Shown here: piece by piece, positions 7,220 to 64,000 of the stretch
Position numbering within the stretch: position 1 is the stretch's first letter
Layout: the number at the start of each line of letters is the position of its first letter
NCBI GenBank assembly: GCA_047967505.1
Contig: CM106538.1
Length of the DNA stretch: 64,000 bases
DNA from: Dipteris shenzhenensis
Lineage: Eukaryota
Strand: one strand, 5' to 3'
Translations under genes and position numbers: made by a program
The notes under the pieces: generated by a model
What the model was told of the DNA's origin: nothing
Database searches by the model: none
The model's input: the letters and a program-made list of their open reading frames with translations, nothing else

Positions 7220-9214
7220 CCTCGCAAGATGTGTAGCCATCTCCCTGAAATTGAACTCCGTCAACCAGAGGACACTCGCATACTCTTCCTCGAAACGTAT
7301 CCTGTGTAGGCAAAGTTTAACAAAACTTAAGCCAGAAAAGGGGCATATTGGTTAAATTAAACAAAGCAAGCACACTACAGGCCATCAAAATATGGCAACA
7401 GGTACCTTGCACGCAGTTATGTTTGCCCTTATGTTCTGCCAACAGCCACCATTGTTGGTCAAGCACTCATTTGTTTCCATGTCTGGAAACAATAGAACAA
7501 GAAATTCCAAGCTTAGGATAAAATTGATAAATTTTATTTTTGAATGCAAAATTGACAAATGTTCAACTGACCTGAAGTCAGACAGATAGATGGTTCAGTT
7601 TTTTCTTCAAAACCTGCACATATTGCCTTTAAGACTGCCCCTTTGTCTAGTTTTCCTGCAAATCATGTCAAGACAACTCTCCATTCATATACGCCAGCCA
7701 ACAATAAATTTGGTGCTTGAAAGACTAACTACTATTTACTCTGACATAAAGTCCGCCAGTGAGCAAAGAATTGTTTGACCTCGGTATTGTATGTTGTTAA
7801 CAATCAAAGTAGGCAACATGGTGACATCTCCACGAGAGCCTTGCCCGATCTGAAGTCCATGCAAAACAGGTTCAGCTTCAGTGCTCCAGCGTAACACACA
7901 ATAGAAACAAAGAGAATGCCATTTCTAATGATAAAGCATACAGCAGTTCGAGACCTGTGTCTCTTGCTCCCCTTTCAAAAGTGCATTTTCTGTATCAGCC
8001 TTCGGATCACCCATGCACTCGCGAATTTTCTTCACATCCAGTCCTGCACAACGTTGTAAAGTTCTGCTTAGCATATTGTGTGTAACCCCTGGCAGTAACA
8101 TAAAATTCTATAAGAGATAATACGATGGACACACCAAGAGACGTGATCACTTGTTCAGCACACTCCTGGTTGTACTTTTTCTCTGCCATCGGACACCTAA
8201 TTTGGAAATCTGTTACGTAGTCCCACCATACCCAAGGTCTGTTTGAAGTTTCATTTGCCACCTTGTAAACGCAAAGCTCTCGAAGGTTTTCTGTTACAAC
8301 ATCCTTGCCTTCGTAACCCCGAGTAAAGTCTTCCTCTGGATCTGGGGCACAATATCTGCCCTTGTTAATACACTGGGATTGGCACTGTTTGCTCGTAACA
8401 ACTGACTCAGGACAATACCACGTGATGTAATGGGGAGTGAAACGTGTGTAACCGCCCTGTTCAAGTAGCTGCGCTGCTCCTTTGAAGCTCTTAACAAATT
8501 CTTTTTGAGAATCACATTTCGAACCACACTCATCGTTACTGTTGGTCCAAAATTCATACTCCACCCGATCATCAGGATGCGGAACAGATTCTCTCCAATC
8601 TAGTTTGCATTGTATCATCTCCTTGTCATCAATTGCTTTCTTGAGAGCATCGCCAAAGCTTTTCTCTATCAATGCAGAGGGAATGGTGATGTTCTGCAAG
8701 TAGTCCCCTGCGGACTTTTCCTCTGCCGGAGAGTCCATGGTGATCAGGGGTTCATCTTTATCGTCCGCGACCAGAACGGCCGCTGCTCCAGCCCTCTGTG
8801 CGTTCCAAACTTTAAGTGCAAAATAGCAGTCTGCAGGGCAAGGCCAGCTATACAGTTAGAGTTTCTCTTACGCTCGGACGTTGTTGACGAGGGGAATTTA
8901 AAGTAAGAATTACCTCCCCTGTCCGCCAAAACAATTGTAGGCAGCACCCCGGCGCCAGACCTGAACTTGTCAGCTGAACCGAAGTCATTACAAAGTTTGG
9001 AGTTATCCTTGGGATAGACAACGGTTCCACCCAAAGTCCCACCGTATTGGGGCACGCCAAAATTTCCAAGAGCACTGTCGTAAGTCCCTTTCAGTGCTTC
9101 AGGGGAGGTGATGCTAAGGCTGTTCTTCTCCACCACAAATCGTCCCAAAATTAGAGGGAATCCGATGAAGCAGCAGAGCAGATAAGCATACACGTCGAGA
9201 CGAGAAATTCCCAT
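7220..9214 (-). CDS. VSR: Vacuolar sorting receptor (BP-80/VSR family), 5' part. Exons 9214-8914, 8830-8135, 8043-7955, 7849-7780, 7655-7572, 7482-7406, 7301-7220
   Basis: Signal peptide then [22 protein letters not shown] domain [71 protein letters not shown], and [25 protein letters not shown]. All six introns are GT-AG and phase-compatible, with no stops. Remaining EGF/TM/tail exons were not found in the window. Confidence 0.95.
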
Positions 9215-28200: not shown

Positions 28201-29336
28201 AAGAGCATTTAGTTTGCAAGCTGAAGAAGAGTCTCTATGGTCTTAAGCAAGCGCCTAGAGAATGGTATCAGAAGTTTGATGCTTTCATTCGGTCCCAGGG
28301 TTTTAGAAGGAGTGAAATTGATCACTGCCTCTACACTAAAAGGGCTAAGGATAGTAGCCTGATAATCCTAGCACTATATGTGGATGATATGCTATTGGCT
28401 AGCAAGAATACTTATGAGCTAGATGCATTAAAGGCCAAGTTGCATGAGGCCTTTGATATGAAGGATTTGGGATTTGCAGGTCATATTCTTGGTATGCGCA
28501 TCACGCGTGATCGGAGTAGGAAACTCCTTTGGCTTTCACAAAAAGAGTATGTTACAAAAGTATTACAGCGTTTCAATATGGAGGGGGGGAAGGCAGTGAG
28601 TACTCCATTGCCTCCATATGTGAAACTGAGTCATACAGATAGTCCCAAATCAGATGAGGAGAGGGCCATGATGGCCAAGGTTCCTTATGCATCAGCAGTT
28701 GGGAGTCTTATGTATGCTATGATAGCTACTAGACCAGACATTGCATTTGCAGTGGGAGTTGTTAGCCGGTATATGGCTAATCCAAGAAAGAGGCATTGGG
28801 AGGCAGTTAAGTGCATCATGAGGTACATGAAGGGTACCAAGGAGATGTGCATTTGCTTTGGTAAAGGAGACATGCGTGTACTTGGGTACACAGATTCAGA
28901 CTATGCAGGGCATGTGGATAGTAGGAGATCCACTTCTGGTTATGTGTTCACCTTTGCAGGTGGTGCAGTGTCGTGGATGTCTCGCGCACAGAAGTGCGTT
29001 GCTTTGTCTACCACAGAGGCTGAGTATGTTGCAGCCACAGAGGGTTGCAAGGAGGCTATATGGCTTGATCGGCTAGTGGGAGATTTGGGGATTCATACAG
29101 GTGTACCGACATTGCATAGTGATTCCATGAGTGCTATTCAGCTAGCACGGAATCCGGTCTTTCATGCAAAGACCAAACACATTGAGGTCAGGTACCATTT
29201 CATCAGGGAGGTACTTGAGGACAAGCGCATAGAGCTTGTCAAGGTTCATACAGATGATAACCCTGCAGATATGCTGACGAAGAGTCTACCTAGTCAGCGG
29301 TTTGAGTATTGTCGTGTATTGATGGGCATTGGATAG
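25273..29336 (+). CDS. Copia B gag-pol polyprotein with one frameshift in gag (~25670)
   Basis: gag KFDGTNFSLW from ATG 25273. The 1213-aa ORF 25695-29336 contains the CCHC knuckle, WILDSGASFH, HHCC/DDE integrase, YVDD RT and RNaseH ADMLTK. The sister copy D reads through this point (IIFSQLQA) with one more T. Confidence 0.95.
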
Positions 29337-34800: not shown

Positions 34801-37800
34801 GGTTACATGGATACTATGATAGTGACTATATCAGAGATTATGAGACCAAGAGATCCACATATGAATATGCATTTTTCCTTAGTCAAGGTGCTATATCACT
34901 GTTGTCAAACAAGCAACCAATTGTTTCCTTATCTTCAACTGAAGCAGAATATAGAGCACTCACTACAGGTGCATTGAGAGTGCTCTTAACGGAAGAGGGA
35001 GAGAGAGAAACAGAGAGCCACACAAGTTTTGGTGGGTGCAGAACACCCTAATCTTCTTTTTCATTCATTTATATATGTGTTTGAGTATTGTACATAACCG
35101 GGGTAAAGGCACACTGACCTTTAACCCCCACAACCTCCCACTTAAAGGACAATGTGCCTTTAAGGGAGAACAACCAGTGAGCATACTATCCAATGCCCAT
35201 CAATACACGACAATACTCGAACCGCTGACTAGGTAGACTCTTCATCAGGATATTTGCAAGGTTATCATCTGTATGAACCTTGACAAGCTCTATGCGCTTG
35301 TCCTCAAGTACCTCCCTGATGAAATGGTACCTGACCTCAATGTGTTTGGTCTTTGCATGAAAGACCGGATTCTGTGCTAGCTGAATAGCACTCATGGAAT
35401 CACTATGCAATGTCGGTACACCTGTATGAATCCCCAAATCTCCCATTAGCCGATCAAGCCATATAGCCTCCTTGCAACCCTCTGTGGCTGCTACATACTC
35501 AGTCTCTTTGGTAGACAAAGCAATGCACTTTTGTGCACAAGACATCCACGACACTGCACCACCTGCAAAGGTGAACACATAACCAGAAGTGGATCTCCTA
35601 CTATCCACATGCCCTGCATAGTCTGAATCTGTGTACCCAAGTACACGCATGTCTCCTCTACCAAAGTAGATGCACATCTCCTTGGTACCCTTCATGTACC
35701 TCATGATGCACTTAACTACCTCCCAATGCCTCTTTCCTGGATTAGCCATATACCGGCTAACAACTCCCACTGCAAATGCAATGTCTGGTCTAGTAGCTAT
35801 CATAGCATACATAAGACTCCCAACTGTTGATGCATAAGGAACCTTGGCCATCATGGCCCTTTCCTCATCTAATTTGGGACTATCTGTATGACTCAGTTTC
35901 ACATATGGAGGCAATGGAGTACTCACTGCCTTCCCCCCCTCCATATTGAAACGTTGCAATACTTTTGTAACATACTCTTTTTGTAAAAGCCAAAGGAGTT
36001 TTCTACTCCGATCACGCGTGATGCGCATACCAAGAATATGACCTACAAGTCCCAAATCCTTCATATCAAAGGCCTCATGCAACTTGGCCTTTAATGCATC
36101 TAGCTCATAAGTATTTTTGCTAGCCAATAGCATATCATCCACATATAGTGCCAAGATTATCAGGCTATTATCCTTAGCCCTTTTAGTGTAGAGGCAGTGA
36201 TCAATTTCACTCCTTCTAAAACCCTGGCACCGAATGAAAGCATCAAACTTTTGATACCATTCTCTAGGCGCTTGCTTAAGACCATAGAGACTCTTCTTCA
36301 GCTTACAAACTAAATGCTCTTCGCCCTTTTCTTCAAAGCCTTCCGACTGCACCATGTAAATTTCCTCATGCAAATCCCCATGCAAGAAAGCTGTCTTGAC
36401 ATCCATCTGCATAAGCTCCATATCCTCTAATGCCACTAGTCCAAGCATGCATCTAAGTGTGGTCATCTTCACAACCGGTGAGAATATCTCATCAAAGTCC
36501 ACACCCTTCTCTTGTTTGAACCCTTTAGCGACCAAACGGGCCTTGTACCTAGGCACATCATCACCTGCGACCTTCATTTTGTAGACCCATTTACATGGCA
36601 ATGCTTTCTTTCCATGTGGCAAAGAAACCAAGTCCCAAGTCTTATTCTTCATAAGTGAACTCATCTCTGATTGCATAGCATACTCCCACTTGCGTTGATC
36701 CTCGTGCATCATGTAGCAAGAAGGCTCCACGCAATCAGTAAGCATCACATAGTCTACCCTTGGAACAAACCTATCAGGTGGTCTAGACACTCTAGATGAT
36801 CTTCTCAAAGGCATTTCAGCTTGCTGTCCCACCTGCATATCAGCCACATTTGGCTCATCATTTCCACCAATAGATAATCCATCATCTACCCTTGATTGTA
36901 TACCTGTCGGAGTACTTGGTGGTACCATTTCTTGCACATTTGGTGCATGGACAGCTTGCTGTCTATCAACATATGTAGGTGGATTCACATCCTGGAAAGT
37001 GATTCTCCTCATTTCCACATCCCTCATGGGTGCCTTATGCATCTTCTTCTCATTGAAGACTACATCATGGCTGCGTATGATCTTCTTTGCTTTTGGATCC
37101 CAATGACGATAGCCCATCTCTCCACTTTCACCATAACCCAGAAAGATGCATTTCCTAGACTTAGGATCTAGCTTCTTTCGAAGCTCTTTTGGCACATGTG
37201 CATATGCCGCACACCCAAATATACACAAATGAGAGTAAGAGGGCTTCTTGCCACTCCATGCCTCTTTAGGAATACCACCATCCAAACTCTTACTAGGTGA
37301 TATATTGATCACATGCATTGCAGTCTTCATTTCCTCAGCCCAAAAACCACCAGAAAGACTTGCATTGGAAAGCATGCATTGCAACCTTTCTTAAATGGTA
37401 CGGTTCATCTTCTCTGCAATTGGATTTTGCTCTAGAGTACGAGGGGATGTGAGCTCCCTCTTAATCCCACGTGTATCACAAAAATGCTGAAAGTCATGAG
37501 AGAGATACTCTCCACCATTGTTAGTCCATAGGCATTTAAGTGTTCTACCTGACTGATTCTCAACCAAGGCCATCCATTTCTAAAATACCTGGAACACATC
37601 ACTCTTCTGAGCTATAGCATAAGCCCACATTTTCCTAGTTGCATCATCAATGAATGTCACATAGTATTCAGCCCCGCTAATGATCATGTAGGCATGGGAC
37701 CACATATGTCTGAATGCACCAAATCAAGCTTTTCAATCTCTTTCTTTCCCCTTCTTTTATGGGCTGATTTAGTCTGCTTCCCATAGAGACAGTGCTTACA

Positions 37801-40800
37801 AATTTCAAAATCAGAGAAACTCAAATGCGGTACATAACCCAAATGGCATAAGAGTTTCATTCCATTATGGCTCATGTGCCCCAACCTGCAATGCCATAAA
37901 GAAGTGCTTGGCTGCTCGGTTATTGCAACAACATGATCAAATACCCCTGATACATGTAAGGGATACAAAGTCCCACACTTGGCACCGCTGGCCAAAAGCA
38001 TAGAGCCCTTCTGAATTTTCCAACTCTGAAAGCCAAAAGTGGTGTGAAAACTAGCATCATCTAGCTGACCCACTAAAATAAGACTCTTGGTCAACTTAGG
38101 CACATGTCTCACATGTTTCAAAATAAATGCAGACCCATTTGTAAAAGAAAACTTTATGTCACCTACTCCCACTATGTCACATGCATAGTCATTTCCAAGA
38201 TGCACACAACCTGTCTTTCCACTGTCATAAGTGGAGAACCATTCCCTATGGGGAGTAACATGGAATGAAGCACCAGAATCCAAAATCCAATCCTGGGAAT
38301 ATGCATCATCTGAAGTGGTAAGCAACTCTGCAGATAAACTAGACATGAAGAGAACGTCATTGTCACTATCATGTGTGACTGCATTGATCTCCTCGATCTT
38401 CACTTTTCCTTTGTCCTCCCTTGGACTCTCTTCGTTTTGATTTGCACCCCAATTTGCATTCTTTTTCTTATCCTTTTGCTCTCTTTTCAGCTTGTAGCAA
38501 TCCTTTTTCATATGGCCCTTCTTGCCACAGTGGTAACACTCAATGTTCCGTGCACTGGATTTGCTACGAGACTTCCCTCTTTCTTGGGACTTCCCCCTGA
38601 ACTGTGATCTGCCCCTTTGCACATTTAAGGCTACATCCTGCTTGCTGCCATCCATAGACTTCCGTCTAATCTCCTCGGCCAACAAGCTACCCATAACATC
38701 ATCAAATTTCAGTACTCCACCAGGTGCGGAGTTACTGACAGCTATACGGAAGGTATCCCATGAGGATGGCAATGAACATAACAGAAATATTGCCTTAGTC
38801 TCCGCATCAAAATTCATCTTCTGAGCCTGAAGCTGGCTGAAAATAATATTGAATTCATTCAAGTGAGAAGCAATGGAGACCCCTTCCTTCATCTGCAGCT
38901 CAAACAACCTCTTCATGAGGTAAACTTTATTAGAGGCAGTTTCCCTTTCATAAGTGGCACACAGTTTCTTCCACAAATCTTCCGTAGTCTGCTCATTTAC
39001 CACTGTGAAATAAACTAACTTTGCAAGATGAAGTCTAATAGTAGATTTTGCTAATGCATCCAACTCATTCCAATCATCCTTAAACATATTTGTAGGCTTA
39101 GCTTCAATCCCTGCCAAGGGTTTAATCTGCTTCTTTTGAATAAGCACATCCCTTATTTGTTCTTTCCACAAAGAAAAGTTTGTCCCATCAAACTTTTTAA
39201 TGCTGAAAAACTCCTTTTCAGACATGGAAGAGGATGCCATGATGCAAATAAAGCAAAATCCCAAATGCTAGTGCCTATAAGAGAGAATCACACCAAATAC
39301 CAGGTGCACCCAAATGTGTATGCCACAATAGAGTGAAATATCACCAAAACTCAAAGCTCAAAGCATCAAAAGATGCATCTGACTCATGTGCATATACTAT
39401 GCATCCATATGAGCAAATCTGGCCCAAAAGAAAATGCCAACTGCAATGGCAATCCAAAATGCCAATAAGTGCCAAATGACTCAAGCATAAACACCGTCCA
39501 CTGGCATATGCTTTAATAATATCTTATCCAAGAGAGCATAGCACTATCAGTGCATCACCTGCAATGTGTCAAAGCTGTCCCTCAGCATAAAATAGCATCC
39601 ATGTGCAAAGCGTCCATAAAATTAGCATCCCACAAGGCAATTTGGGCCTATCAGCGCATCCAATAAGGACCGCAATGCATCCAAATGGCCTATAAATCAT
39701 CCACTGCAACCCAATGCACACCACGAATGAGCGCACACTGCTCAAACTGTAACCAGACTGATCTGCATAAGGTATGCTCAAGAAATCATAGTCCCACGGT
39801 AATGACCACTACTGAAAATAGAACATGAGATGCCTCAAAACATGGGTGCCATTGCGTAATCGGACTCAGCAAGAAAATCTGCAAATATCTCTCTTCTGCC
39901 AGAACTCCAAAATCCCAACCGATCAGTGAGAAATGGGTGTCAACACTTATCCACTGCCATGTGGCATAAATTTAAGGTTTCAAAACCTTAGACTGAAAAA
40001 TGCATAACAGAGAGACGAAATCGAATACACAGAGATCTATAACTCTAAAAATCCTCCACCGAATCGTGCAAGAACTGACAGGTAGGGGTTTTTGGGCGTC
40101 TGGAACGCAATGGGACAGACGGTTTTGGAAACCGTGGTCTCAATCACTGGGTCCAACACACAGACTGAAAAACGTTTTTGGAAACAGAGCTATTTGTAAA
40201 CTCCATCGGAGTGTGAATGATGAGCAACATAGAAGTTTTAGGACCTTCTAAGTCCATCGGAAGTGACAGATTTGCAAATGGTTGCTCCAAACTTGAGTTC
40301 CAACACCCGGGCAAAAAACGCGGAAACTGACACAGTGAGTCAGAAATCCAATGAAATGATCCCAGATTCAAGAATGAAGGTGTTTCCAAGCTCCTAAAGT
40401 GAAGTGGATACCAAAAGCAAGCAATAGTTGCCTCTACAAGTCAATACGGAGTCTCTGTCATCGAACGGAACAGGGAAAAGCTCAAAAAAATGACTTTTTC
40501 TTTGAAAACACTTAACAGGCTCTCAAAACCACTTCGCAAAACCAAAGTGACTTTTCTAAAGGTTCCTCCAAGGTCTCTACACACTCGGATGCAAGTAAAG
40601 TCACCCACAAAGCTTCCCACAGAGCTTCTCCTTCCTCCCATAGAGCTGCAGAGCTTCAAACATTCACGCATACTCAGCTAGATCACCCGGGCTCTGATAC
40701 TAGTTGAGAGTGCTCTCAACGGAAGCAAGAACGGAAGAGGGAGAGAGAGAAACAGAGAGCCACACAAGTTTTGGTGGGTGCAGAACACCCTAATCTTCTT

Positions 40801-42415: not shown

Positions 42416-43064
42416 CCTCCTCGCGCTCTTCCTGTCCCCTCTCCTTCCGCTCACTTTCTTCCTCTCCCCTCTTGTCAACCCTGCCCTCTCGCTCTGTCTT
42501 CCTCTTGCCCCCCCCCCTCTCTCCCCCTTTCTGCCTCTTCCCCCCCTCCCCCTCATATACTTGCGTAGTGTGGCGATAAGACCTTTTCGGATAAATCGAA
42601 CCTTCTCGCTATTTCACCGTGCATCCTCATGTAGATTAATTCATCATACGCCTATAGGTTAATCGACATTGCACCCTCCCCTTGTCAACAAGTAATTAAT
42701 TAATATGCCTTTTTATCGACTGAGGCTTGATTTTTAAAATTCACTCCAAATGGAGAGGGGAACAACTGAGTGGAAATCACATAATTTACTATTGATGACA
42801 AGGTGGACATGGAGTGATGACAAGGCATGCGATGAATGGCACAATATGGGGAAGATGTTGTGACTCAAGAGGTGTGGCACACGTGGCCCAATTGCATCAT
42901 GCAGCAATGCAAGTAGATTTGGACCAAAAGGGAGCGAAAGGAAAACCATAGTAAGGTTAAGCTTAAACCTTGACAAAACCTCAGATAGAACTATAGTAGA
43001 TTCTGAGCTTTGAGAGAGTGTGAGAGTGAGACTGGGAGCTTTGAGAGAGAAAGAGCGAGCGAGC

Positions 43065-43520
43065 ATGGCTATGGCGATGGCGAACATTGCCTCCCCTTCA
43101 TCCCTCCGCTGCTCCATCACTACATTGCCCATAAATCGCCATTCTTCTTTCTCTCCTCCATCCCTTGCCTTCCCATCGCTAAGATTTCTCCAAGGCCTCC
43201 CTCCTTCTCTCCCTTCTTTCATCGCTAGGGCCTCCTACAATGTCAAGCTCCTCACCCCCGACGGTGAAGTTACCTTAAACGCCCCTGATGACGAGTACAT
43301 CCTCGACACTGCTGAGAACGAAGGCCTCCAGCTTCCCTTCTCCTGCCGCGCCGGTGCTTGCTCCGCTTGCTGTGCCAAGCTCGTGGAGGGCGAAGTCGAT
43401 CAGGGCGATGGTTCTTTCTTAAGCGAAGCCCAAATTCGAGCTGGGTATGTGCTCACTTGTGTCGCTTATCCGATAACCGACGTTGTTATAAAGACTCATG
43501 CAGACGGGGAGCTTAAATAG
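43065..43520 (+). CDS. petF: Chloroplast [2Fe-2S] ferredoxin with transit peptide, intronless
   Basis: Ser/Pro-rich transit peptide, then [12 protein letters not shown]...[21 protein letters not shown]...DQGDGSFL...VLTCVAYP (CX4CX2C...C cluster ligands). Confidence 0.95.
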
Positions 43521-49615: not shown

Positions 49616-51056
49616 ATGGTGAACCAAAACCACGGCCGTTCTTGTGGAAGACGCTCTGTGGATGATAATGCTACGAAGGCAGAATTATACCAAACATCCT
49701 TACCCCGTCGACCTGCTTCTTCTATTTCGTCCGGTAGAGAATTCAAGTACAGTCAAAACGGAAGGAACTTGGGAAAGGTTTAGTGTTTCGAAAGGAGCAT
49801 GGGTGCTCATGCAACCTAGCAAAAGAAAAAGACCCCAGACAAAAAACATTTTCTTGGCATCGTGGAAGGGAAGAGTACGAGATTTTAAAATCACCAAAGG
49901 GAAGATATCCGTGAAAGAAGTTTTGATTCAGCACGTGTACATGCATAAAGAACTTGTCTTGCGAGACTATCCAAAAAATCTTCCGCAACACAGGCCTAAT
50001 TGTATATTTTTCTATTGTGGTTTTTTTCTTCATGAGGTGTATGGATTTTTAAGATAAAGCTTTCTCTCTTAGCTTATTGACATTCTTGTGTTGTTTTATT
50101 TCAGATTTATATCCTTCATCGTATGAGACATGGCAAAACATCGATTGTATTCTGGGATTTATAGATGTTCTGCATGGATCGATAGGAGAACAATAATACC
50201 AAGGTCGATGTGCAACAGAGCTAGCTCAATCGGGTATATTTTTTACTGATCATTTTTATTAGTTGCTGGACAAAGCTAACACACATGGTGTATTAATAAA
50301 ACAAGACCTTCCGGCGTGGAATTCAGTGGATTGGCCTCACCCACATTCTAGTGTTACAGAGGCATATAGGGCGAAGCTTTTTACAGAAGTACAGAAAGCT
50401 CTGAGGCCCAATATTGCCACTAGGATAGTAAAAATTTCTTTGTGCATGCCTCTCACAGTTTTTGTGGACTTGTTTAATACCTTTCCCGTGAAGGTTTCAA
50501 AAACAATGTTCACAGTTAAAGCAACAAATTCGGCATGCATGCCACAATTTTTGGATAAAGGTTGGGATAAGAAGACATGTAGTTCAGTGTTTTGTGAGGT
50601 GGTCCAACCTTCTATGCAACTGAAGTATATGGTTGCATCACAAAATTTTATTTTCTCTTTTTATTACAAGCGCAGTCGAATGCTAGGCACAAAGCTTGTC
50701 CCAATGGATCAAGATGAAGAGTCTTTTGGTGCAGAAAATAAACTTATTGATATTGATGTTGTTGAGAATGGTGATGTGCTAGTCAATATCTCATTAAGAG
50801 AATGTTGCTCCCTAGCTCAATTGCACAGTGACATTCTGTTTGAGACTGAAGGTTCTATCTCAAACAACTTTTTATTTATCTACAACAACAGAAAGGTACA
50901 CCATCTGATTTATCCTAGTCTCATTAAGCATTGCTATTAGTTTAATTTACCACTCTAATTCATATTCCTTTTTTGCAGTTACTCAAAAGAAGAGAGAGCT
51001 CAATAAAATGCAAAGACATAGAAAATTTAAAAATTGAGATAACACAGACTCCATAA
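49616..51056 (+). pseudogene. BAH-like domain plus C-terminal ubiquitin-like (beta-grasp) protein. Exons ~49616-50001, 50105-50895, 50979-51056 (start uncertain)
   Basis: Spliced reading FSVSKGAWVLMQP..WKGRVRDF..VLIQHVYMHKEL..HRPNYLYPSSYETWQNIDCILGFIDVLH..IFFTDHFY follows the BAH pattern. C-terminal SLAQLHSDIL..FLFIYNNRKLL..IKCKDIENLKIEI is UBL-like. Introns are phase-compatible; in-frame stops at 50194 (TAA) and 50260 (TAG). Confidence 0.6.
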
Positions 51057-51172
51057 ACAAAGGTTTTGTATTCAATCAAGTAAGATTTTGTACAGAACTA
51101 TTTAGCTGAATCTGTAGAACATATTTCTGACATCCATTTTCTATTTATGTACAGCTTGATCCAGAGGCTGCT

Positions 51173-53232
51173 CTACATTTTCTGGAGGATCTTCTCTCTG
51201 CTGCTCCATCCTGTCTCCTCCACTGTCCCAGAAGCCTCTCTTTGCTGCTTCTCCACCTTCTCCTCAACATCAGCAGCAGGTCTTTGCTCCTGTGTCTGCT
51301 CCTCCTCAGCACTCTGTGATTGCTCCTGTGGCTTCTGGTCCTCAGCATTAGGTGCTTCATTTGTGGGATCAAGGTGTATGACACCTTCTTGTACTTTAGA
51401 GCTTTCACCCAGCTCCACAGTAGCTGGTACAATAGGTTTGGGGGAGGGGGGAGGCATAGCTCAAAAACCTCCAAATTGTATGAGCTCTAAAATTATGTAC
51501 ATAGTTGGAGCTGAAGCTATCCTCTTTCATCTGCAATGGCAGAGGATAATTTAGAACACTTTGTATTATTATGAATTATCTTCAAGCTAAATGAAAAGTA
51601 TTTTTCCTTACCAGGTTTGGCTGTTCCTTCTCAAAGTAGCTTGAAAGTATATATTTTGCATTGATCAGCACCCTCCATCCACAGCTACTTGAATCATTTT
51701 GTTGTGGTGTCTGTACAGTTAGAAAGATATGTTAGAAACTGTTAGCATCAGCACAAAACAAAATTATTCAATAAGTTCAAAGACATAGCATTTAATAGGC
51801 TTTTTACCTCTAGACTTATTGGCTCTATTGAATCCAAAAGAGAGACATTTGGAGGACAGTGATCCAATGCATCTAAAAGCCTTCTAATACAACTGCAATA
51901 TGTATAATTTAGTTAGTATGATATCAAAATAATGAAGTTTTAAGTTCAAAAAGCACACACAGCACTTACAATTTCAGCTCTTTGTGTGTGTTTTTTAGAC
52001 AGTTGAATAGAAAGCATTGCTTCTACTGGATGTCAATAGACACAAAACTCCAGTGGTCACTGCATAAGGAAAAAAGCATAAGAAAATGAAAGGCTACAAG
52101 AGTTCCCAATATTAAAGAAGAATCTTAAAAGAAGTAGTCACCCACATACCTGCTATGGTATGGAAGTAGCAAAACATCAATTACTTCAAAATTGCAGTGT
52201 TTGAACCAGCTGGAAATACTCATGGGAGTCTCCTTTGCATCTCTTAATTTAGAAGAAATGGCTGGATCAACAATATGGACTGTATGCTATACATAGGGGT
52301 GAAGCCAGCTTCTCATCATGCTGCATAGGATCAGAAAATAATTAGGGTAGGTTATAAAGGAGTTACAAGGAGGATTGATTTGCAAAAAATGTAAAATTTA
52401 TAGACACTTACTAGAGCATTGCAAGAATGATAGTATATGAGTAATACTCATTCTTATGAGCCAATGCTGCTAAGCATTGTTTTGTCAAATCAAAATCATT
52501 CACTGAAACTTCATCCTCAATATGAACAACTACATCAGGGCCCAGCTCCTTCAACCTTCTATGTATCTGTAGCTCCTTCTTTCCAGTCTCCACATCTATA
52601 ACAGATTTTGTTTCTTTTATTTGCTGCTTCAGTGAGTCCTCATAAGCAGCCTTCCCTCTGGTGTTCTTTGAGTGTGTTACCTCAACAACCTTTACCTCAT
52701 CAACCTTCAACTTCCTTGTGGGTGGAATTAGCAATATGTCTCTCATTTTGATGTCCTGCCATTCCACAGGATGAACAAGCTTGTCATACCTCCATCTCAC
52801 TCTAGACAAAGTGTTGAAGTCTTTGGCCATCAAAGTCACCCTATGAGCATGCGCTGCTACAAGCATTGCATCTTCAAAATATTTCTCCAAGTAATCCTCT
52901 GCCATTTCCTGTAAGGAAAGAATGGCAGTTCTATTCCACCTGAACCCAAGGTTCCAACTGTCACAAATTTCTCTCACCAGTCTTTGAAAGGGTGCTTTGG
53001 GTATTGCAAAGCCTATAGCTTTCTGTTGCCTCCTGATCTCCCTTAGCACACCTGCACCCTGATTCAATCTTTTGGCCTTTTGCTTGAGCAAGCTCATTGG
53101 CTTACCCTTCCTGCCATGTGCAGCTCTTCCCTTTGGAGGCACACTAAATTTCTTGGTACCTGCCCCAGCTGCTGTTGCTGCAAGCCCTAGTCCTTTGCCA
53201 ACTTTCCTTGCAGTTGACTTGGTTCTTGCCAT
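51173..53232 (-). pseudogene. Histone H3-like histone fold fused to an Ulp1/SENP (C48) protease-like domain. Exons 53232-52412, 52320-52150, 52059-51970, 51892-51808, 51710-51612, 51530-~51173
   Basis: MARTKSTARK tail; fold VLREIRRQQK..IPKAPFQRLVREI..LQEMAEDYL..FEDAMLVAAHAHRVTLMAKDF. After five phase-compatible GT-AG introns: VHIVDP..WFK..DVLLLPYHSSDHWSFVSIDI..FNCL..PQQNDSSSCGWRVL..NFRAHTI. TAG stops at 52289 and 52025, and a probable frameshift in the last exon. Confidence 0.88.
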
Positions 53233-53318
53233 CACTCTGAAAAACTGCATACAAAGGATTGGAAAGAGATCACAGACATGGAGAACATGTTCTAACAAAG
53301 AAAAGGCAATCACAGAAA

Positions 53319-53590
53319 TTTGCAATAAAATGCGATATGAGCAGTTTGGAATTTCAAACAGGTCCACATCGCATTTTGCTGCAAATTTTTGAAATGACAT
53401 GCTGGTGCACTCCTACATATCACTCCAACTAAATACAGTATGAATGGAGTTTATGCAAGAAGATTACAGCTATGGAAGTCACAAAACCAGAATGACAGGG
53501 GTTGATGAAGCAATATTTCAATATTTGCAACAAAACGCGATTTCAGCAGTTTGAAATTCCTAATGCCTTCTCCTCGCATTTTGCTGCAAA
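53319..53590. repeat. Two diverged copies (205 bp apart) of the 17-bp inverted-repeat motif, in the 5' UTR intron of the H3-Ulp1 gene
   Basis: TTTGCAATAAAATGCGA (53319) / TCGCATTTTGCTGCAAA (53369) and TTTGCAACAAAACGCGA (53524) / TCGCATTTTGCTGCAAA (53574). The intron runs from donor 53874 to acceptor 53237. Confidence 0.85.
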
Positions 53591-54039
53591 TTCATGAGGC
53601 AACATGCTGGAATATGCCTTCAGTCATTTGAAGGTGTTTGCATAACCATACAGGATGGATTGAGTCTATGGAAGTCAAGAAGTGTGCACAGACTGAAGGG
53701 AGAACCCATAAGTACAGTTTCACCCTCACATGCAAATATCACACTTGAAGATCTGCATTCCTAAAGTGATTTCTCTGTCTTGATTTGAGTCTATGCATTT
53801 CTATGCAGGATGTATTTTTTCTATTTTAGGCAAGAAGATTGCAGAGACTAAGGGGAGAACCCATTGTTACTGACCTGGAATCTATCTGTGGATGTGCTGT
53901 GCTGCTGAGGAGTAATCTGTGCTGACGATGAACCTATGCTGCTGGACAGGATGCTGATGCTGCAGAGTATGGAGGTAGGGAGGCAAGAGAGCAGAGACTG
54001 GAGGGCAAGAGGTCTAAAACAGGATACCACAAATAAGTG

Positions 54040-54414: not shown

Positions 54415-57270
54415 ATGGAAAAGGAAAAAAAAGGTCAGAATTTTAGATTGGTTTCAATGTTTTTCAACATTTATTTCTTCCATCCATTGGATTTTTGATG
54501 TCCCAATGTCTTCACTCAGCTCCATCCTCCTTCTTACATTTTCAATTTATACTGTTCAAGAATGTGGTAAATCACCCAGAAATTAGATTGTAGGTTGATA
54601 TGAATAGAAACAAGAAATTTGCAACAAAATGCGAGGAGAGTGGTTTATAATTCTCTAAACAGCCCATATCGCATTTTGCTGCAAATTCCTGTTGTTGACA
54701 CCTTCCTCATGAAAAGTTTCACTCATTCCATTATTTCTCTTGCATATGAGATCATAGTGTCCAGGAATCACTGAGATGAACCAATGCTTGATTTGACATG
54801 CACATGAACAGAACTTGAGAATTTGCAACAAAATGCGAGGAGAGTGGTTTATAATTCTCCAAATTGCCCATATCGCATTTTGCTGCAGATTCCTGTTGTT
54901 GACACATTCCTCATGAAAAGTTTCACTCATTCCATTATTTCTCTTGCATATGAGATCATAGTGTCCAGGAATCACTGAGATGAACCAAGTGCTTGATTTG
55001 ACATGCACATGAACAGAACTTGAGAATTTGCAACAAAATGCGAGGAGAGTGGTTTATAATTCTCCAAATTGCCCATATCGCATTTTGCTGCAGATTCCTG
55101 TTGTTGACACATTCCTCATGAAAAGTTTCACTCATTCCATTATTTCTCTTGCATATGAGATCATAGTGTCCAGGAATCACTCAGATGAACCCAGTGCTTG
55201 ATTTGACATGCACATGAACAGAATTTGAGAATTTGCAACAAAATGCGAGGAGAGTGGTTTATAATTCTCTAAACAGCCCATATCGCATTTTGCTGCAAAT
55301 TCCTATGTATGATTTGGTTCTCACTTCTACATCATTAATTTGCTATCTTTAGCCCTGTGGAAATCTTCCTTGATGATGAGAAATGTTTTTGTTTTGGAAC
55401 AACTGGCTCCCAGGCCCCACCTTTCAAGAGGAAGCTGGACTTTTCTGCTGCTATTATTAGACCACAGCAATCACCAGGTGAGTCATGAGATGTCATGAAG
55501 GAATTATCTGGTGATATACAATGCATTCACTGATTGCATATGTCAGCATATAGAATTCATAGTATATAAGTTTTTGAACAGGCAAAAAGAAGAGACTGGA
55601 GCAGAGTGCTGATTCTTCCATTAAAAAACAAATGGAACCAGAAGAGGACAGTTCTCCAGATTTGCTCCTATTTGAGTTTCTTCACAAATGCAAGGCTCAG
55701 AGTAACTTCCATATATACCACAGTATTTTCAACATGGAGTTCACAATGAGCTTTGTACTGGAGTAGCACAAAGACTTTCTTTCAGACTATTGGGATACCT
55801 TCAAAGAACTGACAGAGGCAGGAAGAATTGTGGAAGGAGAAAAGGTTTTTGTGCACATAAATCATATTGTCTCCAATGACAGGCTGAGGTACCATGTGAA
55901 AAGAAGATTTGACAGCCTGCCTGATCACTATAAATTCAACTGTACTTTGCACATCAGAAAGTGCAGAGTGCTGGAGGAGAGCATGGCATTTCTTATGTAC
56001 ATTATCTTCAGTCAGGAGTCTTTGGATGAACAAGGGCAGGAAATAGAAGAAGAAGACACATCTGAAGCAGAGGAAAAGGAGGATGTTTCTTTGGTCACAG
56101 AAATGGCAGAGCAAGAAGAAGATATCAACCTTCAGGATGAGGGGCTGCAAGTGGCTGCTCTTGACCTTGTTCAACTGAGGACAAAAACTCTGAGGGGAGC
56201 AGAGCCAATTGAAGATTTTGATGTTCAGAGCAACAACTATGCAGTGCCCATGCTTCCAGGTGTGTTGATTGGTGGAAAGGATTATGTTTTCCTCCATGAT
56301 ATAGAGTGTATGTTTGATTTGAGGGAGGACTATGCCATTTCCCTTATTGCCCAGGCTTCAAGACTTGACAAGGAGGTTGGCATAGAGGATGACCATTCAC
56401 TACTGGCTTTGGAAACAATGTTTGATCCTGTAGAGGCCCTTTCATTTTGTTTCAAAGAGGCTGAAAAGTTCCAAGAGCCAGATGAAGCTGCCTTCCAGCT
56501 CACACAGGAAGCTATGAATCTCTCAGCACTATACACAGAAAAGCCTAAAGAAGAGGCTGGACAAGAGGGGAGAGGGATAAATCTTTGGAAAGATGAACTG
56601 CTTGTTGTTGATGAAAATGAGAAGGTACTTCAAATCATATACTTTGACTTCTGCTTAACTTTGTTTTTGTAGGTTGTGTATTGTCTCATTCCAATCCTTT
56701 GATATGTGGCAGCTACAAATTGAGGATGACACATTCTTCCAGAGATCAAGTGGAAGCAGGCAGGTTGGGTTTCGCAAAATGTCAGGCCTAGCTCATTATA
56801 TTCATGATCTAGGCAGTGCCAAGATCTTGATTTACCATAGGCAGTTGAGCAACAATGGAGAAGCCATTGTTTACTTCCTAAAATGTTTGTCCAGGGCTTT
56901 AGGAGGACATGTTCTTTCATGGCAAAAGGAAAAGATCATTTTGATAGAGAGGTTGTCTGCCATAGATATATTTGGAGATTATGTGAATAAGCAGGCCTCT
57001 AGGGCCGCTTACTTTTTGTCTTACACTTCTTATGCATTAGCATGTGGTGTTAAGGAGCCCAAATATCTGGAGGGCTATGGAAAACACCAGCTCGTAAGGT
57101 TTCGAGAGCCACCCATGATTGCATCAGGCCACACAGTCCAAGAAGAGGAACAGGTGGAGAGAGCTGAAGAAAAGGATAAAGAGACAGTCGACATCAAGCC
57201 AATAAAGAAAAAAAAGACTCCAATCAAGATCAAAAAGAGAGTTCCGATCGGCAGGCCCTGGGAGAAATAG
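54415..57270 (+). pseudogene. Spliced acidic protein of unknown function. Exons ~54415-54433, 55353-55477, 55582-56624, 56673-57270
   Basis: Long coding-like frames (280 and 198 aa) with Glu-rich tracts and a basic C-terminal NLS-like IKKKKTPIKIKKR. Exons 2-3 join in phase; TAG at 55764; the first and last junctions are off by one base. Confidence 0.6.
54615..55304. repeat. Tandem array of a ~205-bp unit (3.4 copies), each with a 17-bp inverted repeat
   Basis: TTTGCAACAAAATGCGA starts at 54618, 54822, 55027 and 55232. Each is followed ~34 bp later by TCGCATTTTGCTGCA(A/G)A. Confidence 0.97.
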
Positions 57271-57594
57271 GATTTAGTCATCGAATATAGCACAAACATT
57301 ATATTAAATTTGAACTGATTTGTATAAAGTCTTTGATATCTGGTATGATCTTGTATAAATGATTAATAAGTTGATGATGAAATGATTTGTACATTTACAT
57401 AGAGTGGTGTCGTTAAATATTAAATGAACAATATATTGAAATTGTAAACAAATTGTATTAAGTTCAGATCATATGTTTCACAAAAGAAATACTTTTCATG
57501 CATAACACCAAGAGTCACTTGTTCCACTAAAAAAATTTCTATTGAATGAGTTTGAAAACATGTGGACATAACACCAATAAGTTACAAATGAGTC

Positions 57595-58570
57595 CTATTC
57601 ATGTTTACTTGTCCATTTATGGTTTCTAAATATCTTCGATTCCCTCCATTGTCTATGTCTCTCTGCTACAATTGAATTGTCTAGAGCTTGTCTTCGTCTT
57701 TGCTTTTGGGCTAGAAGAAAAGCAAGCTTGATTTTGGAGCTAGCAACTTTTCTTTTAGCATGCAGCCTCTGTAGTATGCCTCGGTAAAACCATTGGAAGA
57801 CTTCCTTTAGACTATTCACCTTCTGACTCCCTCCATAGTGTTGTGTGTGTCTAAAAAATGCATTACGTGCCATGTAGTGAGACTTCTCCATGCCTTGGGT
57901 AGACCAAATAGCTGGGCATCCATACTTTTTGACAAAATAGGGAAGGTGGTTGTATATGATATGCTGTAAGACATAAGAATGCATAGTAAGTAATTAAAAA
58001 AAAGAGGATCACACTTAAGTAAAAGAAAAAGACATAACCTTACCATGTAGTGAGTTATATTGCAGGATGTCCACGCGTCTTTCATTGACTTTCCAAAATG
58101 TTTAATTGCCTCCTCAAAGTTCTTGTAATCACTCTTTGTCCATGTTACTTTGTCACAGAACATGAAGAGTTGATCAAGAGACCTCCACACCTCTGCCTTC
58201 CTATTTCATGCTTCCCCATCTGCCTCATGATCTTTCACAGCATTATGGACTTGCTTCCACAATCCATAATTAATATTTGAAACTGCTCTACCTTGCCTTA
58301 CTTGCTTACTGTGTTTGGGTCGAGACAAGAATCTTCTTGCCTTAACACCACCAATAGAGGGCTTGATTGGTACCTCCTTGCCATTGGTAGACTTTTTAAA
58401 ATCCTTTATGATTTGAACATCTCCTCCATGCAAACCTATATCCGATAACACTTTTTCCAATGCTTGAAGAGCATCCTTTCTATTTTTTTCGGGACGGAGT
58501 TTCCAAGCAAATCCAATATATAAAAATACCAATTTCTCAATAATTCGACATAGACCATGCAATGTGCAGC
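57595..58570 (-). pseudogene. C-terminal half of a RAG1/Transib(CMC)-like DDE transposase; intron 58043-57964
   Basis: CTLHGLCRIIEKL (CxxH motif), then spliced ITHYM|HIIYNHLPYFVKKYGCPAIWSTQGMEKSH (TxYxHxxxxH zinc ligands and WxxxGxE catalytic Glu). One in-frame TGA at 58208-58206. The N-terminal DD region is replaced by unrelated sequence. Confidence 0.75.
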
Positions 58571-60589
58571 TTGAGTCCATCTCTCTCTAGTTCATTCTCT
58601 CTCTATGAATAGTCTTGGAGCTTCCGCTCCCTCTTATACGTTTGAAACCTCTTCTTCTCCCTTGTGTTTGTAGTATTTTGAGTTGCATTGGAGTGGAGTC
58701 TCACTCTATTAGTAATGAAGGTCACTTCAGGTTCTCTCTCTTGAGTGTCGTTTTCCTTTTTCCATTGTTTTCTCTTCCAAAGTGCTCAAAAGTGTTGTCT
58801 ATTCGGCTGCTCATTGCGCATACATGGTTTATCTATTTCCCAAGCCACAAAGGGAGCTCTTCCTTCCCTCCTAGGTAACCTCTATGGGACTTGGATTGTT
58901 GATGAAGTCTAAGCATGGAGGTAGTATTCTCCCAAGTCGGCACCAGTAGAAGGAGTACGTGTTTTTCATGACAGTTTGACCCCCTATCAGTATTTTGCTT
59001 ATAACTTTTTGCTCCATCATCCGATTTGGATAAAACATATATTAGCACAAAGCTCTCTTTAAGGAGCATCATCCTATGTCCTCAGTTATTGTATTAGATT
59101 TCAAACCAAAAATCTATGACTCTCTGTGTGTGACTATTTCTTTTTCAGATAGTTTTTACCCTGTCTAGTAAACTGCCCATATCTTTCCGACTGCTTCTCT
59201 GTTTCTTATGAAACTTATATCACAGCGAAGCCCATTTTAAGATGCATCTGGATATGTGTTTGAATATTTTATATCATGTCTCTGCTGAAAGTTATGGGTC
59301 TCTGTGTCTTATGATAGTTTGGAGAGTGTTTTGAGCTAAGTGTAAAGGTGTCTATGAAGGAGGTGCAATGTTTCCTCAGAACCTACCCATCTGACCCGAT
59401 CAGCCCCTTCAAACTCCTTGATATATATTAGTTCATGTCATGTTGAGCTGCAAGATCTTCTTTCAACAACATTTCACTCTTCTCTTTGGCACAGACCACC
59501 GGCTTGCTAAGATTATGGCCTCCGCTGATCCTTTCCTTCTCCCTATGCTTGAGTACAACATCATTTGGGATGTTACCATCTTCATTCTCCTATAAGGAGG
59601 GATAGTATGGTGTGGTCTCTTGGTATAAAAGCTTCTTTTGAATGTCCCTTTCCCAGTGATGAATATCTCTATCACTCAGTTCGAAAGCAGTAGGAAGTGA
59701 AGAGGTGCGTGAAGTTTATTACCCCCAACTTCATGTCATAGTATGCCAAAATCATTATGATATCTTACATGCAATCTAAAACATTGAAGAAAAATGTCAC
59801 CACAATGCTAAAACTGAAATATTCACTCAAATTTATGTCATATATTTGGCATCACATGTTCTTATTGCCCATGCTTTATGAACCTCATGCAACCAACTGT
59901 CATCCACATATTTATAGTTGGTTCCATAAAAGATATACAAAGCATGCAAATAGTAAGAAAAAAATGAATCAAGATATCTCCCACTAGTGCTTGGGTTCAT
60001 GGCACTTTTGCACATCAGCGAGCATTCTAATTTAATATGACCTGCTCATCTCTTACTTAAAAGTGGACATTTCTTACTTACCACACTTAAGCCTACGTCT
60101 CTCACCGAAACACGACTTGAGGTCCTAAGCTACACGTATACTACAAACGACAACCTTGATATATCTGTAGGTGACAAAAATCCTCGGAACCCTGCATACT
60201 GAGAATACCCTGCTCTTTCCATCACAAAAGCCTGGGACAGAGCCAACACAACATCCGGCCATTCAGGTAAATACCAATCTCGAGTCTTCACAAGCTTTAA
60301 CATGCACCCTAAAGTTCATAGAGTGACGACCCTACCAACACCTCGAGAGATGCACACAAAGTGAAAGCAATGCCCAATCATCCTGGTTCGAGTAGTCTAT
60401 GGGCTTCAACAAAATGCAAGAAAAGGAGAGACAACCTAAGTGCGGAAGCCATTGCAATAGTGGTGACGTTTTGGCATGAAAATACGAGAGTTTTTCCAAA
60501 TAACAAGGACATTTGTAGAAAGTAGACAGGATGCAAGATGTTTGAGGAGCACATCATACACATGCTTGATACAACGCAGAGGTGAGTGG

Positions 60590-61874: not shown

Positions 61875-64000
61875 TGTAAGAAAATAATACATCTATGCTC
61901 AATAGATAACAAGATCTCGTACGCAAGAGAGAAAACAAGATAGTATGGATAATAAAAAATTTGATTACTGTAGAACTGATACAATAGATGGCGCTGCCTC
62001 CCAACTGTGCGCTCCTGTGAAAGAAGCTTCGATGGCATGCTGGAAACAGTAGAAGACGGAGGCTGGATGTTAAGGAATCAGGGTTGCTGTAGCCAGTGAT
62101 GAAATGGGCTTCACGGGCTTGCTCTTATATAGCCACCAATCATAGTCGGTTAGGCTCAATTGGGTGATCGACCTAGTCCGCCCAAAACGGTCGACTGGGG
62201 GTCAAAATAGGCCACCGACCATACAATAGAACCGGTGCGCAAAATAGAGCAACTAACCTACGGTTACTGTTCGGCCTAGAGCCAATCTGGGATCTCATCT
62301 GAGGCTCCAAACGGGCCCCACAACCCGAGAGTGGGCTGCCCCGAGAAATGCTCCGTCTACCCTCAGTGCGGTCAGTCAAGGGATGCCTTCCCGCACTTGG
62401 ATGTAGCCTAGTTAGCGGTGTGCCAACTCTATCTGAAGCTGTCTAGCCATCAGGCCACACATGGCCCCCATCTGGTGTCCAAACCAAGACCTACCGGATA
62501 ACCGAGCTCCTCAAATGCCTTCTCCTCATATGGGGGCTTACAAGTAGAGTTAGCTGGTTCCCGCGTAGTTACACGAGAGTGGAGCATTGATATCTAACAC
62601 CCCCCCTCAATGTCCACCCGCAAGTGAACTTACTTTTCCAGCCCAATGCCAAGTCAATGAAGATGCCTCTCCAGTAAGTCTCTTCCAAGAGCCCTACACC
62701 AAGTCGACCTCTCCATCCATGATCGCGTACAAAGTGATATTGAATCTCAATGTGTTTTGTGCGAGTGTGGAACACCGGGTTCTTTGCAATCGCCATGCAA
62801 CTTTGATTGTCACATGATAACTGCGTAGGCTTGTTTTGCACTGCACCCATGTCCCGCAAAATCCTCCTCAACCATACTGCCTCGCAACAAGCAAAGCATG
62901 CATATACTCAGCCTCGGTAGAAGAAAGAGCAACTATGGGTTGCTTCTTGCTAACCCATGACACAGCTCCAAATCCAAGTGAGAAACAGTAAGGTGTCACT
63001 GATCTCTTGCTGTCCACGTCTCCTGCCCAATTCAAGTCACAGAATCCGGTCAAGATGTTGCCCTTGGTATAGGTGATGCCATAATCAAGTGTGCCTTTGA
63101 TGTATTTCAGCACCCGCATCCCTGCCCTCCAATGGTTCTCCCGGGCTCATTGGAAAACCTGCTTAGTACACCAGTCACACAACTGATGTCCGGCAGTGTG
63201 TTGCACAAGTAAATCAAGCTGCCCACAAGCCTTCTGTACTTGGCTTCATCCACCAGTGGTGATGAATCCTCGTTTGAGAGCTTCGCATCAACCTCCATAG
63301 GGGTACCAACTGTCTCGCACTCAGCCATGCCAAATGCCTTCAGTATCTCTCCAGCATACTTCAGCTATGAAATGAAGATCTGTTTCGGCTCCTGCCAAAC
63401 TTCAATCCCCAAACAGAAATGCATCAGTCCAAGGTCTGTCATTTCAAACTCTCTTCCTAGCAAATGCTTCATCTGCGAGATCTTCTCTTCATGGTTCCCT
63501 GTTATGACAAGGTCGTCCACATAAAGGACCATGATCGTACACCTGTCTCCTTCTTTGAAAATATACAAATTTGCATCAGATGGGCTCCTCCTGAACCCAT
63601 TTCACAGAAGTAGGCATCAATTCACTGGTACCACGCTTGTGGAGCCTGTTTCAGCCTGTAAAGTGCCTTCTTCAGTTTGTAGACTTTACCTTCTGAACCG
63701 GGGATCTCAAAACCTGGTGGTTGTTCCATGTATACCTCCTCCTTCACATCTCCATTCAAAAAGGCGGATTTCACATCCATCTGAAACACGGGCCAACTTC
63801 TATGAATTGTGGTTAGTCGAGCTGTGGGAGCAAAAGTATCTTGATAATCAAAACCATGTACCTATGCAAATCCTTTTGCCACGAGCCGAGCCTTGTACTT
63901 ATCCAACGTGCCGTCGGACTTGTACTTGGTCTTGTACACCCACTTGGTTCCTATTACCTTGTGTTTTGGTGGTCGATCCACAAGGTCCCAAGTGTTGTTC
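61875..64000 (-). mobile_element. Degenerate copia E (RT, RNaseH, PPT, 3' LTR 61875-62599), related to copia A; runs off window end
   Basis: [49 protein letters not shown]. The minus strand reads PPT GAGGGGGGG then TGTTAGATATCA. The LTR shares blocks with 3958-4550. Confidence 0.93.

Follow-up and report, generated by a model that had tools for sequence, protein, structure and literature searches.

A histone H3-like domain in a multi-copy fern gene family, very probably fused to an Ulp1-type protease

What is a histone H3 whose fold combines canonical residues with seemingly centromeric ones and whose tail has been rewired, and what kind of gene carries it? The question is raised by an H3-like domain encoded on the minus strand of a 64,000-nucleotide stretch of Dipteris shenzhenensis DNA (assembly GCA_047967505.1, contig CM106538.1), hereafter called the window. 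An initial annotation of this domain had left its role between a decoy of the H3 tail and a centromere-related targeting device. The window domain is a real but divergent histone H3-like domain. It very probably belongs to a family of histone-protease fusion genes, of which the window holds a dead copy.

The H3-like domain and the gene that carries it

The open reading frame (ORF) starts at ATG 53232 on the minus strand and its frame is open down to 52414; residues 1–146 (approximately 53232–52795) are H3-like, in agreement with the interval 52800–53232 delimited previously. The match to H3 is far above chance. Pfam Histone PF00125 was found on this ORF with E 6e-27 and 94.8 bits (cut-off 26.4), a PDB search with the window protein retrieved 176 distinct chains at E ≤ 0.001, with all 60 chains listed being H3-type, and 64/147 identities (44%, E 3e-28) were counted in the BLASTP alignment with P0238, a plant H3 (named histone H3 of Canna indica). 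P-numbers designate relative proteins, and L001–L004 four contigs of a metagenome collection.

Residues of the domain are given in histone numbering (A = 1). The H3-type N-terminus ARTKSTARK and the alphaN segment LREIRR were aligned by BLASTP to plant H3. The residue features listed in the initial annotation were recovered: ARTK4 and ARK9 are kept (A1-R2-T3-K4 and A7-R8-K9 in both translation and alignment), S10 is replaced by V, no ARKS string (K27 motif) occurs in the translation, and the tail is longer than that of H3 by 14 residues, all 14 alignment gaps lying within it. FQR is kept in the alignment to plant H3, loop 1 is of canonical length, as the segment REICDSWNLGFRW aligns gap-free to the alpha1/loop-1 stretch of H3, and RW, EDYL and RVTLMxKDF are present, the last one reading RVTLMAKDF. 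The C110 equivalent is V, and the equivalents of H113 and D123 are kept. The canonical tail sites S10, K27-S28 and K36 are not kept; the K27 region falls in alignment gaps, and the K36 context is likewise absent. That annotation had, however, missed both the protease fusion and the dead state of the copy.

The features of the gene, all on the minus strand, are the following.

53062..53232, minus strand: H3-like N-terminal tail, start M-ARTKSTARKV (translation, alignment to plant H3, family tail tally).
52795..53061, minus strand: H3-like histone fold, alphaN to alpha3 (Pfam Histone 6e-27, PDB matches).
52648..52794, minus strand: family-specific conserved extension after alpha3, WRYDKL..P....D.KMRDILLIPP.RK ... 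TH..TR (columns invariant or almost so in alignments A1, A2, A3).
52412..52647, minus strand: variable linker, then the beginning of the C48-like domain; end of exon 1 (donor read; ORFs of relatives stop at the equal place).
52150..52320, minus strand: exon 2, protease part, interrupted in frame by TAG at 52289-52287 (splice sites; tblastn of P0204 to 52286-52152, E 0.002).
51970..52059, minus strand: exon 3, catalytic-His motif DHWS, with an in-frame TAG at 52025-52023 (splice sites, conceptual translation).
51808..51892, minus strand: exon 4, protease part (splice sites, frame).
51612..51710, minus strand: exon 5, oxyanion Gln and catalytic Cys motif PQQNDSSSCGW (tblastn matches).
51176..51530, minus strand: exon 6 and acidic, Pro-rich C-terminal tail (frames; similar acidic or Pro-rich tails in relatives).

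Beyond the fold the frame runs for 127 codons to the splice donor TA/GTAAGT at 52412/52411, in phase 2, and exon 1 is a single open frame from the histone fold into the first part of the protease domain. Downstream of it, five more exons were read, all bounded by good splice sites. The His (DHWS), Gln and Cys (PQQNDSSSCGW) motifs of an Ulp1/SENP-type protease are readable in the window exons. Exon 5 was matched in tblastn by the relatives P0049 (E 1.3e-4), P0181 (E 9.7e-5) and P0021 (E 6.3e-5), and the window protease exons matched the C48 parts of full-length relatives with E values from 6e-5 to 8e-3. The H3-like domain is thus predicted to be the N-terminal module of a multi-exon gene composed of tail, fold, extension, linker, C48 protease and acidic tail.

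The window holds a dead copy of this gene, with the histone exon open and with nonsense mutations in the protease exons and in a neighbouring gene, ORF2. At 52289-52287 the related contigs from the DNA runs X2, X3 and X4 read CAG in place of TAG, and so do those of X1 and X3 at 52025-52023. Towards the end of exon 1 the window copy has Tyr in place of a conserved Asp, and past a C-tract the frame of the acidic tail is displaced by one base, probably by a frameshift. Five disabling changes in about 454 other codons give P ~0.05 for the 274 codons of the histone exon staying open; the open exon is suggestive of nothing beyond luck or a short use as a truncated protein.

50107..51020, plus strand: ORF2, conserved partner gene, convergent with the H3-protease gene (tblastx/tblastn to L001, alignment A4).

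ORF2 is interrupted by two in-frame stops, TAA at 50194-50196 and TAG at 50260-50262. It matched L001 at 3655-4533 (minus strand) with E 1.7e-66 in tblastx and E 5.4e-70 in tblastn (44% identity), and the linkage is regarded as conserved because the histone parts of the window and of L001 are only 47% identical. No Pfam family was matched by ORF2, and its AlphaFold model, built from a two-row alignment, had a mean predicted local distance difference test (pLDDT) value of 35.7. An ubiquitin-like C-terminus, perceived by eye, would be of note beside an Ulp1-like protease, but was dismissed as unsupported, the structure model having failed. Between the histone-protease gene and ORF2, L001 carries at 2808-3371 (plus strand) an ORF with Pfam NIF (1.6e-17), NLI-interacting-factor-like and of the CTD-phosphatase (C-terminal domain phosphatase) type, without counterpart in the window.

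Relatives, phylogeny and selection

A word-based search yielded ten relatives that have the fold and the conserved extension in common. When the representatives of 1.84 billion clusters were searched with a profile, 180 proteins were found at E ≤ 1e-30. With a profile of the extension only, at least 41 family clusters at 50% identity were recognized (41 of the 150 representatives listed), and 78 of the 291 collected proteins were assigned to the family. A word-search candidate for a longer fused form, P0020 (601 residues), proved to be unrelated. Of 137 pattern matches obtained in a collection of viral contigs, none was confirmed as a family relative.

The same architecture was found in other loci and in gene models of Adiantum. 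The histone exon is followed by collinear protease exons in all five DNA loci studied (the window and L001–L004), and in L001 the donor AG/GTAAC places an intron at the same position and in the same phase 2 as in the window. Many independent intact family ORFs of about 275 residues end exactly at the boundary of exon 1 in the window, as expected because gene calling without intron models would yield them. The relative P0049 carries Histone (2.6e-23) together with Peptidase_C48 at 25.6 bits, above the cut-off of 20.7, and its C48 match begins at the homologous place, within the part corresponding to 52412-52647 of the window.

A clan CE protease fold was predicted in the relative P0204, whose AlphaFold model was compared with known structures by VIA-align. 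Against yeast Ulp1, Z was 12.0 with a root-mean-square deviation of 3.8 and 186/218 residues aligned, and the first 29 rows were all Ulp1/SENP/NEDP1/NopD/XopD-type proteases. H3 chains came next, matching the N-terminal part with Z 6.5 to 6.8.

Family members with a named source were from Adiantum ferns only, namely A. nelumboides, in which 12 contigs carry 12 gene models, and A. capillus-veneris, with one family gene model. The closest relatives of the window copy were 77 to 84% identical to it. In the maximum-likelihood tree of 59 fold sequences and 100 columns, from which P0027, P0048 and P0207 were left out (core pattern missed) and which had no verified CENH3 among its rows, the 34 family rows were set apart together by a branch supported at 100/100. 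The stem of the family measured about one change per column, well apart from the H3 sequences, and several deep subclades were distinguished. P0133, with RW and a long loop 1, had been placed beside the family stem in a quick tree (support 80), a position lost in the careful tree and for that reason disregarded. Mean pairwise identity was 0.40 in the tail, 0.50 in the fold, 0.42 in the extension, 0.15 in the linker and 0.24 in the start of the protease. The family is, as judged from these comparisons, large, old and diversified.

Four DNA runs (X1–X4) furnished 16, 10, 41 and 38 contigs, respectively, on the 2.2 kb from 51100 to 53300, at 80 to 99% identity. The differences between the window and these contigs were classed by codon effect; 40 of the 254 differences are listed, and the following counts refer to them. 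In the fold 5 were synonymous and 0 non-synonymous, in the tail 2 and 3, and in the linker with the protease start 2 and 8. The share of synonymous changes differed between fold and linker (Fisher p 0.007), which points to probable purifying selection on the fold in the ancestry of these copies. The comparison takes the place of a dN/dS test only in part.

The tail was examined in 32 family sequences, chosen by the pattern M-x-R-x-K, so that R2 and K4 are present by construction. A1 was found in 26 of these tails, T3 in 20, T6 in 21 and R8 in 25; position 9 was Arg in 17 and Lys in 11, S10 was present in 3, and the K27 motif was carried by no family row. In one of the large subclades the tail is degenerate (ARPKR.., PR.K..). 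The earlier proposal of a K4/K9 decoy immune to K27 methylation stands in part: the loss of the K27 context is family-wide, while K9, Lys in only 11/32 tails against Arg in 17/32, is not conserved, and the corresponding place at 53204 reads Arg in the most closely related contigs (7 of X3 and 6 of X4). Position 9 is mostly Arg and therefore a K9 decoy is not a conserved property of the family. Part of the family does conserve an H3 N-terminus that would be unmethylatable at both position 9 and position 27.

Transposon carriage, mechanism and the alternatives

The many diverged copies, the linked partner gene, the joint decay of the histone-protease gene and ORF2 in the window copy, the chimeras with retroelements (the A. 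nelumboides models P0170 and P0210 are chimeric with retroelement domains) and the precedent of Ulp1-like genes in Mutator-like elements (MULEs) together argue for carriage by transposons; the unit probably is, or once was, transposon-borne. As to the precedent, a review describes Ulp1-like domains (Kaonashi/KIU) carried by angiosperm MULE transposons of the VANDAL type, which are without terminal inverted repeats (non-TIR), with a link to anti-silencing, and ties the Ulp1-bearing VANC genes of VANDAL to silencing escape and methylation loss (PMC13317346).

Our best overall reading, held with moderate confidence, is a probably transposon-borne, chromatin-targeted deSUMOylase. The mechanism of a chromatin-tethered deSUMOylase is itself put forward tentatively. 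An intact copy would use its histone fold and the conserved extension to bind H4 or chaperones of H3-H4, and its free ARTK-type N-terminus would mimic H3 and engage binders of the H3 tail. Together these contacts would carry the tethered C48 protease to chromatin, where it may strip SUMO, or a modifier akin to it, from chromatin proteins, and the removal of the modifier would benefit the element, for example by countering silencing. A SUMO E3 ligase-like protein acts in plant transcriptional silencing (PMC6084981); this role of SUMO and the methylation loss associated with VANC (PMC13317346) make an anti-silencing role the most economical guess. Under a bolder version, which we consider distinctly unlikely, the fern transposon family would make its own H3 variant, with the H3 N-terminus and the H3-H3'/H4 interfaces preserved but free of K9/K27 methylation, as position 9 is Arg in most members and the K27 context is absent. 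This variant would be built into nucleosomes with a tethered deSUMOylase, and the element would thereby create silencing-proof chromatin at its own site or at its targets. If true, a histone variant encoded by a parasite would be an anti-silencing device in plants.

Several observations weigh against the preferred reading. No RNA data set was listed for 51100-53300, and the exon joins rest on sequence and on database gene models; single protease exons of the window gave no C48 match in Pfam, being too short, and the C48 scores of P0181 (15.8 bits), P0204 (15.2 bits) and an exon of L001 (17.0 bits) are below the Pfam cut-off. The mean pLDDT of the P0204 model is only 62.4, and Foldseek with this model returned nothing at E ≤ 0.001 (best 5.2e-3), NEDP1, Ulp1 and SENP ranking first. 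Asn appears to occupy the place of the catalytic Asp in exon 3 of the window, in L001 1386-1631, in P0049 and in P0204. The open state of the histone exon could be chance. As regards carriage, no transposase was found among the ORFs of at least 70 residues between 39,500 and 62,600, of which 68/76 were scanned (the other 8 overlap scanned ORFs on the opposite strand or lie in a repeat); the only matches were Histone, ferredoxin and NCD2, this last within a 205-bp tandem array and below its cut-off. No convincing terminal inverted repeats were detected in a repeat search of 42000-64000, and no target-site duplications were found, the best pair of a CACTA-type search agreeing in 14/20 positions with unequal flanks. 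Mobility of the unit is therefore putative.

The position itself was deduced from a weak alignment of P0204 with SENP2 (E 0.87), in which Asn falls at the catalytic Asp. Such a residue would mean either a papain-like His-Asn-Cys arrangement or a domain that binds rather than cleaves, and the protease activity of the family members is uncertain given Asn for Asp. A complete His-Asp-Cys triad with Gln in an open frame was not found in the window copy, which has Asn and two in-frame TAG codons.

The alternative that survives best is a host gene family, namely chromatin-tethered Ulp1-like proteases specific to a fern lineage and anchored by the histone fold, with ordinary duplication and birth-death, the window copy being a pseudogene; we consider it unlikely. 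It would account for the failure to find a transposase or element termini and for the conserved spliceosomal introns. It also agrees with the host genes nearby, a single-exon ferredoxin at 43014-43517 (plus strand, Fer2 8.3e-20) and a vacuolar sorting receptor exon at 8007-8855 (minus strand, Pfam VSR_TRX 9.2e-73), by which the locus lies in gene-bearing DNA. It is opposed by the number of copies (no fewer than 41 clusters when grouped at 50% identity, 12 models spread over 12 contigs of a single genome, and many contigs at 80 to 99% identity in small DNA runs), by the co-conserved partner gene ORF2, by copies interleaved with retroelement pieces and by the decay of both linked genes together in the window copy.

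A second alternative, distinctly unlikely in our opinion, adapts the earlier decoy idea to the family data and makes the histone the effector: it would be deposited in nucleosomes or would soak up H3 readers and writers, unable to carry repressive methyl marks, and the protease would be auxiliary, for instance by freeing the histone module through self-cleavage. The first eight residues retained in a large part of the 32 tails, the prevalence of R over K at position 9 (17/32 against 11/32), the rarity of S10 (3 tails) and the lack of the K27 motif all accord with it. So do the H113 and D123 equivalents, which we take to be residues of the H3-H3' interface and which are invariant or nearly so in the family, and a histone exon open while the rest is broken (chance P ~0.05). 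Nevertheless, the tail is degenerate in a large subclade, the linker (mean pairwise identity 0.15) showed no conserved motif for cleavage, and the protease domain and its linkage are retained across the deepest splits of the family, so that the protease is hardly a mere accessory.

Descent of the domain from the host CENH3, with targeting of the protein or element to centromeres, is very unlikely. RW, EDYL and RVTLM.KDF are presumably typical of plant CENH3, and the Trp of RW and the Glu-Asp of EDYL are invariant in the family alignments. Two H3.1 chimeras with CENP-A segments were the best PDB matches of the window protein (85.1 against about 80 bits, best 60 of 176) and likewise led the search with the family profile (145 against about 137 bits, best 60 rows); an H3.3 chain with Trp at the RW place and the two CENP-A chimeras scored 3 to 8 bits over the other H3 chains listed. 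Loop 1 and alpha2 form the centromere-targeting region of CENH3 (PMC8603533). Against such a descent, loop 1 is not lengthened: there is no gap with respect to plant H3 across alpha1, loop 1 and alpha2, and in the family alignment the loop-1 region has the same length in 18/20 rows and one extra residue in 2/20. The tail retains ARTKQTAR as in H3, no chain named centromeric only was among the best 60 PDB rows of either search, and the non-family matches listed in the profile search of named proteins were H3, not CENH3. Ordinary genes are, moreover, present near the locus in the window. No named plant CENH3 was retrieved by the protein searches, and a language-model atlas search with the fold retrieved divergent histone clusters only (0.81 to 0.86). 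That the domain might be the host's CENH3 itself, considered in the initial annotation, is excluded by the fused C48-like protease, the large family and the nonsense mutations of the window copy.

An ordinary H3 pseudogene in neutral decay, with the fusion as an accident of neighbouring sequence or gene prediction, has next to no probability: the downstream disabling mutations of the window copy and several clearly chimeric or truncated database gene models speak for it, but it is contradicted by the fold-extension-linker-protease order in 5/5 DNA loci, the conserved place and phase of the intron, the many independent intact ORFs of about 275 residues with the same exon boundary, the single 100/100 clade with its long stem, and the listed fold differences, synonymous in 5/5 cases against 2/10 in the linker. 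Host CENH3 and a decayed gene for ordinary H3 are thus both rejected as identities of the window domain, and a probably transposon-borne fusion is the reading retained here.

Other features surround the gene.

53318-53610, opposite orientation to the array: two diverged copies of 205-bp repeat units, directly upstream of the histone gene start.
54616-55304, inverted: tandem array of the 205-bp unit (3.4 copies, 97% matches), with the histone gene on one side and divergent ORFs on the other.

The array could be a promoter or a subterminal repeat of the element. The ORFs beyond it are long open frames without a Pfam family, at 55767-57270 (plus strand) and 57598-58586 (minus strand). An atlas search with 57598-57993 retrieved unnamed eukaryote clusters, DUF4218 being the nearest named one at 0.78 (weak). 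The ORFs of 55767-58586 might be further genes of the element, perhaps the remnant of a transposase. Elsewhere in the window, an apparently intact Ty1/copia polyprotein ORF of 1225 residues with gag, integrase and RVT_2 (Pfam) lies at 25659-29336 (plus strand), and a near-copy of it, split into two ORFs, at 35186-39267 (minus strand). Copia fragments occupy both window ends, at 2398-3165 and 62572-63999 (both minus strand).

Comparison with known systems

To our knowledge, histone variants are normally host genes, and no Ulp1-like domain borne by a transposon is known to be joined to a histone. In the full-text literature, no H3-protease fusion and no plant transposon-borne H3 was found described, with most subscription journals and supplements outside the search. 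The architecture of a histone H3 and an Ulp1-type protease appears to be new, and it relates to H3 variants on the one side and to transposon-associated Ulp1-like genes on the other. A repeated and selected gene that joins an H3-like histone with a SUMO-protease-like enzyme would be a new route for the delivery of enzymes to chromatin and, plausibly, a new weapon where transposons and silencing are in conflict. Whether a selfish element can supply its own nucleosome component becomes testable with it, and a natural histone-enzyme tether could serve as a borrowed tool.

With canonical plant H3 (H3.1/H3.3) the fusion family shares alphaN and the histone fold, an equal loop-1 length, the H113/D123 equivalents and, in much of the family, near-identical first nine residues of the tail. 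It differs in the absence of the K27/K36 context, in a window tail 14 residues longer, in Trp instead of the Phe of H3, ED instead of EA and V/A instead of C110, in an extension of about 50 residues after the fold with the fused protease, and in being multi-copy and fast-evolving. CENH3/CENP-A is comparable in being an H3 variant of divergent sequence, with a rewired tail and, presumably, Trp where loop 1 meets alpha2, and the domain scored slightly better to H3.1/CENP-A chimeras than to H3; in contrast, loop 1 of the fusion family is not lengthened, its N-terminus is H3-type, a protease is fused, and it is large with a broken window copy, whereas CENH3 is a single essential host gene.

Kaonashi/KIU likewise has a C48/Ulp1-like domain in a repeated, probably transposon-borne gene. 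No histone module is described for it, and the review mentions Ulp1 nine times and histone not once (PMC13317346). No MULE transposase was found in the window, the named fusion members are from ferns and not from flowering plants, and the fusion family appears to have Asn at the catalytic Asp position. The host Ulp1/SENP/NEDP1 proteases share the predicted fold (P0204, Z 11 to 12 over about 185 residues) and the His, Gln and Cys motifs, also readable in the window exons. Sequence identity of P0204 in these structural matches is 9 to 15%, Asn stands for Asp, and the fusion family has a histone as its N-terminal targeting region in place of the usual non-catalytic extension.

Finally, macroH2A is a precedent for the fusion of a core histone with a globular domain of another kind, and the histones of giant viruses are a precedent for selfish or viral genomes with histones of their own. 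The fern fusion differs from both in its histone, in its fused domain and in its carriers.

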